Below, one piece after another: positions 25,760 to 25,825 of a DNA stretch of 64,000 bases; the stretch's first letter is position 1; each line of letters starts with the position of its first letter. The DNA is from Candidatus Peribacteria bacterium RIFCSPLOWO2_12_FULL_55_15. GTDB lineage: Bacteria > Patescibacteriota > Gracilibacteria > Peribacterales > Peribacteraceae. Position numbers and translations under genes: made by a program. The DNA lies in assembly GCA_001789045.1 (NCBI GenBank), contig MFYG01000020.1:48349-112348 (forward strand), written 5' to 3'. A model generated the notes under the pieces. That model was not told the DNA's origin. It saw only the letters and a program-made list of their open reading frames with translations, and ran no database searches.

Positions 25760-25825
25760 CTTCGCCAGGCAGCACTGCTTGCCTGATGAATCCGAACCGT
25801 ATCGTTCTGCGCTTGTGCTGCCTGG
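25760..25825 (+). repeat. family-1 hairpin repeat, copy B
   Basis: Perfect 11-bp outer stem CCAGGCAGCAC/GTGCTGCCTGG enclosing the core TGAATCCGAACCGTATCG (25787-25804). Confidence 0.75.

Follow-up and report, generated by a model that had tools for sequence, protein, structure and literature searches.

Hairpin Repeats in Peribacteria Genomes

REPs in E. coli act as both mobile DNA and 3′-end RNA hairpins. REP and REPIN sequences, with their RAYT partners, are found in E. coli, Pseudomonas, and Stenotrophomonas (SMAG), and they are short extragenic imperfect palindromes that occur in many copies, form several subfamilies per genome, reside in 3′ UTRs or between cistrons, leave no target-site duplication, cluster with other hairpin repeats, and are thought to be handled as single-stranded DNA hairpins. 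A repeat that is alike in these respects, here called family-1, has three copies in the window, the whole 64,000-nucleotide (64 kb) stretch of Candidatus Peribacteria DNA analysed here, and one of them (copy 2) forms a cluster with a hairpin of a second family, family-2. Hairpins in single-stranded DNA are also acted on by Y1 transposases, which work at the lagging-strand template (PMC6006769).

Peribacteria is a class of Peregrinibacteriota, within the CPR. CPR genomes are very small, and little mobile DNA is usually attributed to them; the paper on the complete 1.25 Mb Peribacteria genomes mentions neither these repeats nor a transposase (PMC4736985). Family-1 resembles REP-type mobile palindromes more than it resembles a small RNA gene. 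Our favoured explanation, with a probability of about one half, is that family-1 is a lineage-specific, non-autonomous, REP/MITE-like dispersed palindrome that acts as a DNA hairpin, probably a single-stranded one; a "REP-like element" had already been among the candidates listed in a sequence-only reading of the window, and it is the one favoured here.

The Three Copies in the Window

The core TGAATCCGAACCG(C/T)ATCG occurs three times in the window, at 20532, 25787, and 50839, always on the + strand, and a covariance model (R1) run over both strands of the 64 kb with filters off recovers the same three copies (E = 1e-21 to 1e-27) and no fourth copy, the next best match having E = 0.6. The three same-orientation copies of the sequence-only reading are therefore all real and complete in number. 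They can be aligned over only ~75–80 nt; because the flanks are unrelated beyond this length, the copies are not fragments of a larger duplication, an origin that had been raised for them and is now ruled out. With just three copies in the window, chance similarity, or descent as remnants of one duplicated segment, might seem to suffice; however, about 0.18 matches to the core are expected by chance with three mismatches allowed, the flanks share nothing, and more than 45 others occupy unrelated loci of related genomes, which leaves this explanation a negligible probability.

Copy 1 (20503..20576, + strand) is of subtype A, with the 5′ tag CTTCGCC at 20503–20509, a hairpin at 20507–20571, the loop AATCCGAACCG at 20534–20544, and the 3′ tag CTCAG. 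Copy 2 (25758..25832, + strand) is of subtype B and carries the T variant of the core, a loop at 25789–25799, and the outer stem GCCAGGCAGCAC/GTGCTGCCTGGC, which is extended by CGC/GCG pairing. Copy 3 (50806..50886, + strand) is B-like and the most degraded of the three; its loop lies at 50841–50851, its outer stem is ACCAGAC/GTCTGGT, and its inner stem is CCGATG/CATCGG. The pairing spans approximately these same three intervals (~20503–20576, 25758–25832, and 50806–50886), which makes the elements slightly longer than the 61–63 bp first given for them. The outer stems quoted at that stage hold, with the exception of a single A·C mismatch in copy 1, and the inner stems are correct in copies 1 and 3 and weak in copy 2, where three Watson–Crick pairs are accompanied by two wobbles. 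The 5′ tag CTTCGC(C/T), described as common to all three, does not extend to copy 3, in which the homologous tag is CTTCACC (50811–50817).

When folded as RNA on the + strand, copies 1, 2, and 3 reach z = -4.0, -4.6, and -3.0, respectively, and copy 1 is the most stable 90-nt fold of the whole window. Two other strong hairpins were seen in the window: a long, nearly perfect one at 2803–2897 (+ strand; -52 kcal/mol, z = -5.4), which belongs to neither repeat family, and a very stable trailer hairpin at 37880–37990 (- strand; z = -4.3), just downstream of the 16S rRNA gene. This 16S gene (38014–39515, - strand) is complete and there is no 23S gene in the 64 kb, indicating that the rRNA genes are unlinked.

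A Fixed Loop on Covarying Stems

An alignment of 36 distinct copies (A3) yields a consensus structure of 23 pairs. The unit is an imperfect palindrome of 76–80 bp with the complementary termini CT(T/G)(C/T)GCC ... GGCN(C)AG, and its outer stem of 11–12 bp defines the subfamilies: CCATCCAGCTC/GAGCTGGATGG in subfamily A, which ends in CTCAG, CCAGGCAGCAC/GTGCTGCCTGG in subfamily B, and GTGGAACG.../...CGTTCCAC in subfamily C, a third type. The middle of the element is asymmetric, with CTCGCTTG on the 5′ side and CTGCGCTCG on the 3′ side, and is followed by a short closing stem, so that the conserved centre as a whole reads CTCGCTTG-CCCGAT-[AATCCGAACCG]-ATCGG-TCTGCGCTCG. The fixed parts are the 11-nt loop AATCCGAACCG and two asymmetric internal loops. 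The closing stem covaries, changing from GATG/CATC to GACA/TGTC, GAGG/CCTC, or GAC/GTC, and therefore the loop, not the 18-mer, is the invariant part. Of the 18-nt core that the sequence-only reading had called conserved, the 11-nt loop is indeed fixed, and the bases beside it belong to this covarying closing stem.

Across the 36 copies, 93.6% of cells form standard pairs, compared with 80.3% in column shuffles and 25–40% when the pairing partners are slid. Double (compensatory) changes are found at 16 of the 23 pairs (9.5 in shuffles and 5–9 with slid partners), and a covariation score as high as that observed came up in none of 500 shuffles. At several pairs, the copies show three or four different Watson–Crick states; columns 20/77, for example, are CG in 13 copies, GC in 11, and AU in 5, and columns 25/72 are UA in 14, AU in 11, and GC in 6. 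The view that the stems covary around a fixed apical sequence, originally based on the three window copies, thus holds as a strong effect once 36 copies are aligned, both in the number of pairs with double changes and against the shuffles.

The covariance model adds seven copies with altered cores ("second" copies within loci), and these retain 8–11 of the 11 bases of the loop on stems that vary greatly. A loop-blind search, in which the flanking internal segments served as the key, found 44 copies, none of them with an unrelated loop. The conservation of the loop is not merely an ascertainment effect of a core-based search.

Complementarity does not continue past the outermost aligned pair (3.08 vs. 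2.78 of 10 pairs, p = 0.115), and no target-site duplication was found, the flanking direct repeats being at most 2–3 nt long in a few of the 36 copies; the unit is therefore ~76–80 bp in length and has no target-site duplication. Insertion into pre-existing host hairpins, which would account for outer pairing specific to each copy, is ruled out, since the complementarity stops at family-wide ends, and the sharing of outer stems within subfamilies also speaks against it.

Resemblances of the loop to known RNAs were considered and rejected. The reverse loop GGUUCGGAUUC resembles GGUUCGAAUCC, as would be expected of tRNA T-arm mimicry, but differs from it at the conserved positions 58 and 61, and neither ARAGORN nor the Rfam tRNA model calls a tRNA at the reverse-strand loop. 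A stretch of the 16S rRNA, CAGUUCGGAUU (38243–38253, - strand), matches 10 of the 11 bases of the reverse-strand loop, a degree of matching that chance alone should produce ~1.7 times in the window.

Distribution in Peribacteria

The window derives from a genome recovered from a groundwater metagenome, and its sequence is present in several ENA assemblies as well as in NCBI assembly GCA_001789005.1. A core scan that covered 185,579 species-representative genomes matched 111 loci, which comprise ~20 full-hairpin copies, all in one Candidatus Peribacteria MAG (CAZWCH01), and ~90 bare 18-mers inside the coding sequences of unrelated bacteria, approximately the number expected by chance. The MAG is related to the window genome, with genes that are 77–86% identical and two syntenic loci. 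A metagenome scan gave 26 loci, ~22 of which carry true family-1 copies, and the four matches in a scan of viral contigs are all due to chance and have no hairpin. True copies were not found outside the Peribacteria clade in the genome, metagenome, and viral scans. The expectation of further copies in related genomes is borne out by ~45 more in Peribacteria contigs, and, in metagenome assemblies, unitigs break at the repeat, which shows a few more copies at similar depth.

The Rfam covariance models give no match at the element in the window at the gathering threshold, and none at E<=10 at three loci carrying high-scoring copies. Family-1 is a previously undescribed hairpin repeat that is confined to a small group of groundwater Peribacteria.

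Copying and Turnover

Family-1 has been copied to many unrelated intergenic sites, and its subfamilies share derived features. Type A stems are common to more than 10 unrelated loci, four non-orthologous type B copies of the MAG (L015, L019a, L045a, and L065) carry one and the same A·A mismatch in their outer stems, and in two chimeras (L087 and L129) the outer stem is of type A and the inner stem of type B.

Orthologous sites also differ in whether they hold family-1, which has been gained, lost, or swapped there. The SSB/MurB spacer that houses copy 2 in the window contains two family-2 hairpins and no family-1 copy in a relative (L136); the site downstream of the gene that ends at 53943 is occupied by a family-2 hairpin in the window and by a family-1 copy in the MAG (L024); L088 has a family-1 copy where L117 has a short plain GC hairpin; and copy L045b is missing, together with 75 nt, in L125, where the convergent genes abut. 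In L136 (6957–7046), the left arm of the orthologue of copy 1 (window 20503–20576) has been replaced by unrelated sequence, which places a rearrangement breakpoint inside the element, and this variant coexists with the intact form of copy 1 in one metagenome (run X5). Alleles without copy 1 or copy 2 were not found in four metagenome assemblies. A 37-nt indel relative to the MAG (L071) lies at 20466–20502 of the window, right against the 5′ boundary of copy 1, and in L071 the upstream ORF runs straight into the CTTCGCC tag. The window genome shows no sign of recent movement, as its three copies are mutually diverged.

Other copies have been kept in place. Orthologous copies are found at TsaC in three genomes and at the pairs L015/L124, L045a/L125, L064a/L131, and L109a/L132, and L064a and L131 differ by three compensatory pair changes that arose in place. 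Such orthologous retention across genomes that are ~77–87% identical would also be compatible with constraint at the level of the host. Between paired copies lie only housekeeping genes (GAPDH, PGI, aldolase, GatA, RecF, a glycosyltransferase, and an AAA_28 ATPase), with no transposase of any kind among them, and when E. coli RayT served as the phmmer query for every ORF in 384 kb of Peribacteria DNA, no homologue emerged (E>1).

Position at Gene Ends

In the window, each copy follows a - strand gene (TsaC, MurB, or rpmH) at a distance of 0–36 nt from its stop codon. The stop codon of the TsaC/Sua5 family gene (20572..21198, - strand; PF01300) directly abuts the 3′ side of copy 1, such that the TCA of the copy 1 tag CTCAG (20572–20574) is the complement of the TGA stop, and a 71-aa hypothetical ORF (20255..20470, + strand) converges on the same copy and ends 32 nt before its 5′ tag. 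Copy 2 is flanked by the SSB gene (24840..25709, + strand; PF00436), which ends ~50 nt upstream, and by the MurB gene (25853..26833, - strand), whose stop codon is ~20–27 nt from the 3′ side of the element. Copy 3 sits between rpmH (L34; 50912..51049, - strand; PF00468, E = 1.3e-14), the stop codon of which is ~35 nt from the 3′ side, and a 99-aa ORF (50479..50778, - strand), which follows rpmH and starts ~30 nt from the 5′ side. The two genes around copy 3 are on the same strand, and the element had been misplaced in a divergent promoter region; because it is not there, the argument built on that placement, that a 3′-end or terminator role could not explain all three copies, fails, and each copy in fact follows the stop of a - strand gene. 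The 99-aa ORF (50479–50778) occupies the position usually held by rnpA and has no Pfam match. RNase P RNA (class A), 432 nt long for a model of 367 positions, was located at 51697–52128 (+ strand), near rpmH and tRNA-Thr.

The gene context of 46 copies was assessed with a codon-likelihood gene caller that reproduces the window annotation, and all assessed copies lie outside called genes. Within a distance of 120 nt or less, the 3′ side of the element faces a gene 3′ end in 24 copies and a gene start in 6. In 23 of those that face a stop codon, the stop lies within 24 nt, and in 8 it lies inside the element's own tag (TCA or CTA). The 5′ side shows no preference, facing gene ends and gene starts equally (13 vs. 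13).

This polarity can be read in a different way from that of a mobile DNA palindrome, namely that family-1 is a host cis-acting RNA at gene 3′ ends that serves as a terminator, a block to 3′ exonucleases, or a processing mark. The element would then be transcribed with the upstream mRNA, usually as the reverse complement with the loop CGGUUCGGAUU, and would be read by a host protein. Such a role agrees with the 23 copies whose 3′ side is 0–24 nt from a stop codon and with the window copies, which all follow a - strand gene, as well as with the observation that orthologous gene ends always carry some hairpin, the identity of which varies (family-1, family-2, or a plain GC hairpin). Canonical terminators composed of a hairpin and a U-tract are not enriched nearby (11 found vs. 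11.3 expected), orthologous copies are kept with in-place compensatory changes, and the loop is fixed across genomes with genes that are only 77–86% identical, all of which would suit a host function. The three window copies themselves, however, have no U-tract after the hairpin on either strand, roughly one-third of the copies whose context could be assigned are turned the other way or face the start of a gene, and the mismatches shared within subfamilies point to copying rather than local evolution. In metatranscriptome contigs from the same aquifer, RNase P RNA is the only examined region that is covered, and none of the copies gives a signal.

A Second Hairpin Family

The core of family-2, CATGGTGAGCnnnGTCGAACCA, has four matches in the window, where 0.02 are expected. 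One of these hairpins (GTCATGGTGAGCnnnGTCGAACCATG; 25731..25757, + strand) directly abuts copy 2 to form a small mosaic cluster, and the others are located at 47290–47345 (- strand), 53955–53990 (+ strand), and 58889–58910 (- strand, a weak match). The segment 47250–47360 contains two inverted family-2 units (z = -5.9), and relatives carry the family at L136 1600–1780 and L019 2342–2441. Family-2 has a conserved loop, GAGCGTAGTCGA, on variable stems and occurs in both orientations, and in relatives it takes the place of family-1 at orthologous gene ends. The similar design of the two families may hint at a general "loop-addressed hairpin" system in these reduced genomes.

Base Pairing and Replication Orientation

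The 828 pair cells of the alignment contain 18 G·T, 27 A·C, and 27 other non-Watson–Crick combinations. When an RNA is under selection, G·U is normally much better tolerated than A·C on the strand of that RNA. Among the copies with only the reverse strand in a 3′ UTR, the transcribed strand has 10 wobbles vs. 8 A·C combinations. Pairing is kept at the Watson–Crick level, and G·T is not favoured over A·C on either strand. Of the conclusion drawn in the sequence-only reading, that covariation reflects selection on an RNA or DNA structure, the RNA half receives no backing from the wobble test.

GC skew changes from negative to positive at 12–20 kb of the window, beside dnaN (11885–13012, + strand), and a replication origin is therefore probably located inside the window, at ~12000–20000. 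On the right arm, + strand genes and - strand genes are both G-rich on the + strand (+0.064 and +0.101), indicating that the skew reports replication and not transcription. Between 20000 and 64000, the presumed leading-strand arm, - strand genes occupy 22 kb and + strand genes 16 kb; a leading-strand gene bias is absent from this interval, and its coding strands are slightly C-rich.

All three window copies reside on the right arm, where their + form is carried by the G-rich strand, the template for lagging-strand synthesis. With local skew as a proxy, the + form is on the G-rich strand in 33 of the 43 copies from all loci; at |skew|>0.05 the ratio is 26:5, and with orthologues merged it is 22:4 (~85%; binomial p ~5e-4). 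This replication bias is confounded with the gene-end bias, the antisense-only contexts being concordant in 12 cases and discordant in none. Neither the lack of favoured wobbles on the transcribed strand nor an orientation bias linked to replication, which has no obvious RNA explanation, is what a host RNA at gene ends would predict, and we consider that explanation the main rival, though a less probable one.

Orientation along the replication direction (22:4) and pairing at the Watson–Crick level could also mark a host site at the DNA level, either a duplex or cruciform read by a protein, such as a nucleoid or gyrase site like the BIMEs of E. coli, or a strand-specific signal on the lagging-strand template, such as a priming signal. 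When DNA parameters are used for folding, copies 1 and 2 are stable (z = -3.2 to -4.3), as such a site would be, but copy 3 forms a poor DNA hairpin (z = -0.4 to -0.7). A host site of this kind also fits badly with the low density of ~1 copy per 20 kb in the window, with positions that turn over between close relatives, and with the presence of several subfamilies that have different stems, and no candidate binding protein is known; it appears improbable. A role as a DNA uptake signal was ruled out, since ~1 copy per 20 kb is far too low a density.

A Proposed Mechanism

If family-1 is a REP-like mobile palindrome, as we favour, its active form would be a single-stranded DNA hairpin exposed at the replication fork, and the fixed loop and internal loops would provide the recognition surface for an enzyme that acts in trans to copy or move the element. 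For such an enzyme, the HUH/Y1 transposases of REP and IS200/IS605 hairpins would be the nearest model. Propagation would be restricted to copies whose hairpin is intact, and we propose that this requirement to fold is why the stems covary between subfamilies. The tags CTTC... and ...TCAG, both conserved, are candidate cleavage sites.

The TCA or CTA just outside the 3′ side of the stem may render insertion at the very end of an opposite-strand gene harmless, and the proposal is that the 3′ side often touches a stop codon because this built-in stop complement spares the gene. A tag of this kind would give the observed polarity without any RNA function. Copies in 3′ UTRs or between cistrons are probably transcribed, and a hairpin of this stability may secondarily act as a 3′-end barrier; the DNA-hairpin and host 3′-end RNA readings are not mutually exclusive.

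A bolder and rather unlikely proposal is that the loop on its covarying stem is the signal for a new, Peribacteria-specific trans-acting factor, either a single-stranded DNA enzyme or a 3′-end system. In the former case, a new HUH-type or other enzyme may nick or bind the loop and spread the hairpin; in the latter, a CPR-specific system of 3′-end formation may operate in place of U-tract terminators.

An amplified, maintained, and replication-oriented family would show that selfish or domesticated hairpin elements persist in a Peribacteria genome of 1.25 Mb. The combination of a conserved loop with free stems offers a handle for finding the factor that reads it, and, if the hairpins mark transcript 3′ ends, they would give this uncultivated lineage its first described signal for termination or transcript stability. 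The covariance model also marks intergenic boundaries and points of strain-level rearrangement in Peribacteria assemblies, for example, the L136 variant.

Comparison with Known Hairpin Systems

Several systems share single features with family-1. Like family-1, an intrinsic terminator is a stable hairpin, rich in GC, that stands right behind stop codons and often separates convergent genes, but it is followed by a U-tract, whereas the three window copies have no T-run on either strand and are not picked by a terminator scan; the family-1 stem is also much longer, with conserved internal loops and an 11-nt conserved loop, and one sequence family recurs at many genes. A MITE of a DDE transposon, which the complementary termini might recall, was rejected, as no direct target-site duplication was found in 36 copies. 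An integron attC site was rejected as well, since the fixed centre and variable outer stem of family-1 are the reverse of the attC pattern and its neighbours are housekeeping genes.

The end hairpins of IS200/IS605 elements and of their miniature derivatives (PATEs) are alike in that they are recognised as hairpins with conserved irregularities, leave no target-site duplication, and show an orientation bias that places one strand on the lagging-strand template (PMC6006769), a bias seen here through the local-skew proxy. In contrast to family-1, which is a single symmetric hairpin, IS200/IS605 elements have two different end hairpins with defined cleavage sites of four or five nucleotides; neither a TnpA nor a TnpB gene was seen with family-1 in the Peribacteria DNA examined.

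REPs are 20–40 bp in length, whereas family-1 units are ~76–80 bp and are hosted by a CPR genome of 1.25 Mb. The GTAG motif (GT[AG]G) found 5′ of REP hairpins is present on the reverse strand of family-1 in only 4–5 of 36 copies (L019a, L064a, L117, and L131), and the reverse-strand consensus before the family-1 stem is CTG(A/C/T)GCC. BIMEs and REPINs are tight inverted doublets, in contrast to the copies of family-1, which are mostly single; the nearest inverted pairs are 0.6–1 kb apart and flank ordinary genes. The RAYT partner of REPs has no counterpart for family-1 in the 384 kb of Peribacteria DNA. Family-1 thus works like the REPs yet fails two of their defining features, a general GTAG and tight doublets.

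The distribution of conserved and variable parts differs as well, since in REPs the stems are conserved and the loops vary, and family-1 shows the reverse. A fixed loop on a stem that varies and stays paired is found at the rolling-circle origins of HUH Rep proteins (geminivirus/circovirus and pT181-type), which are single-copy sites beside a rep gene, whereas family-1 has tens of dispersed chromosomal copies with no rep nearby. In its conserved-loop/variable-stem design, family-1 is more like these HUH Rep origins than like the REPs.
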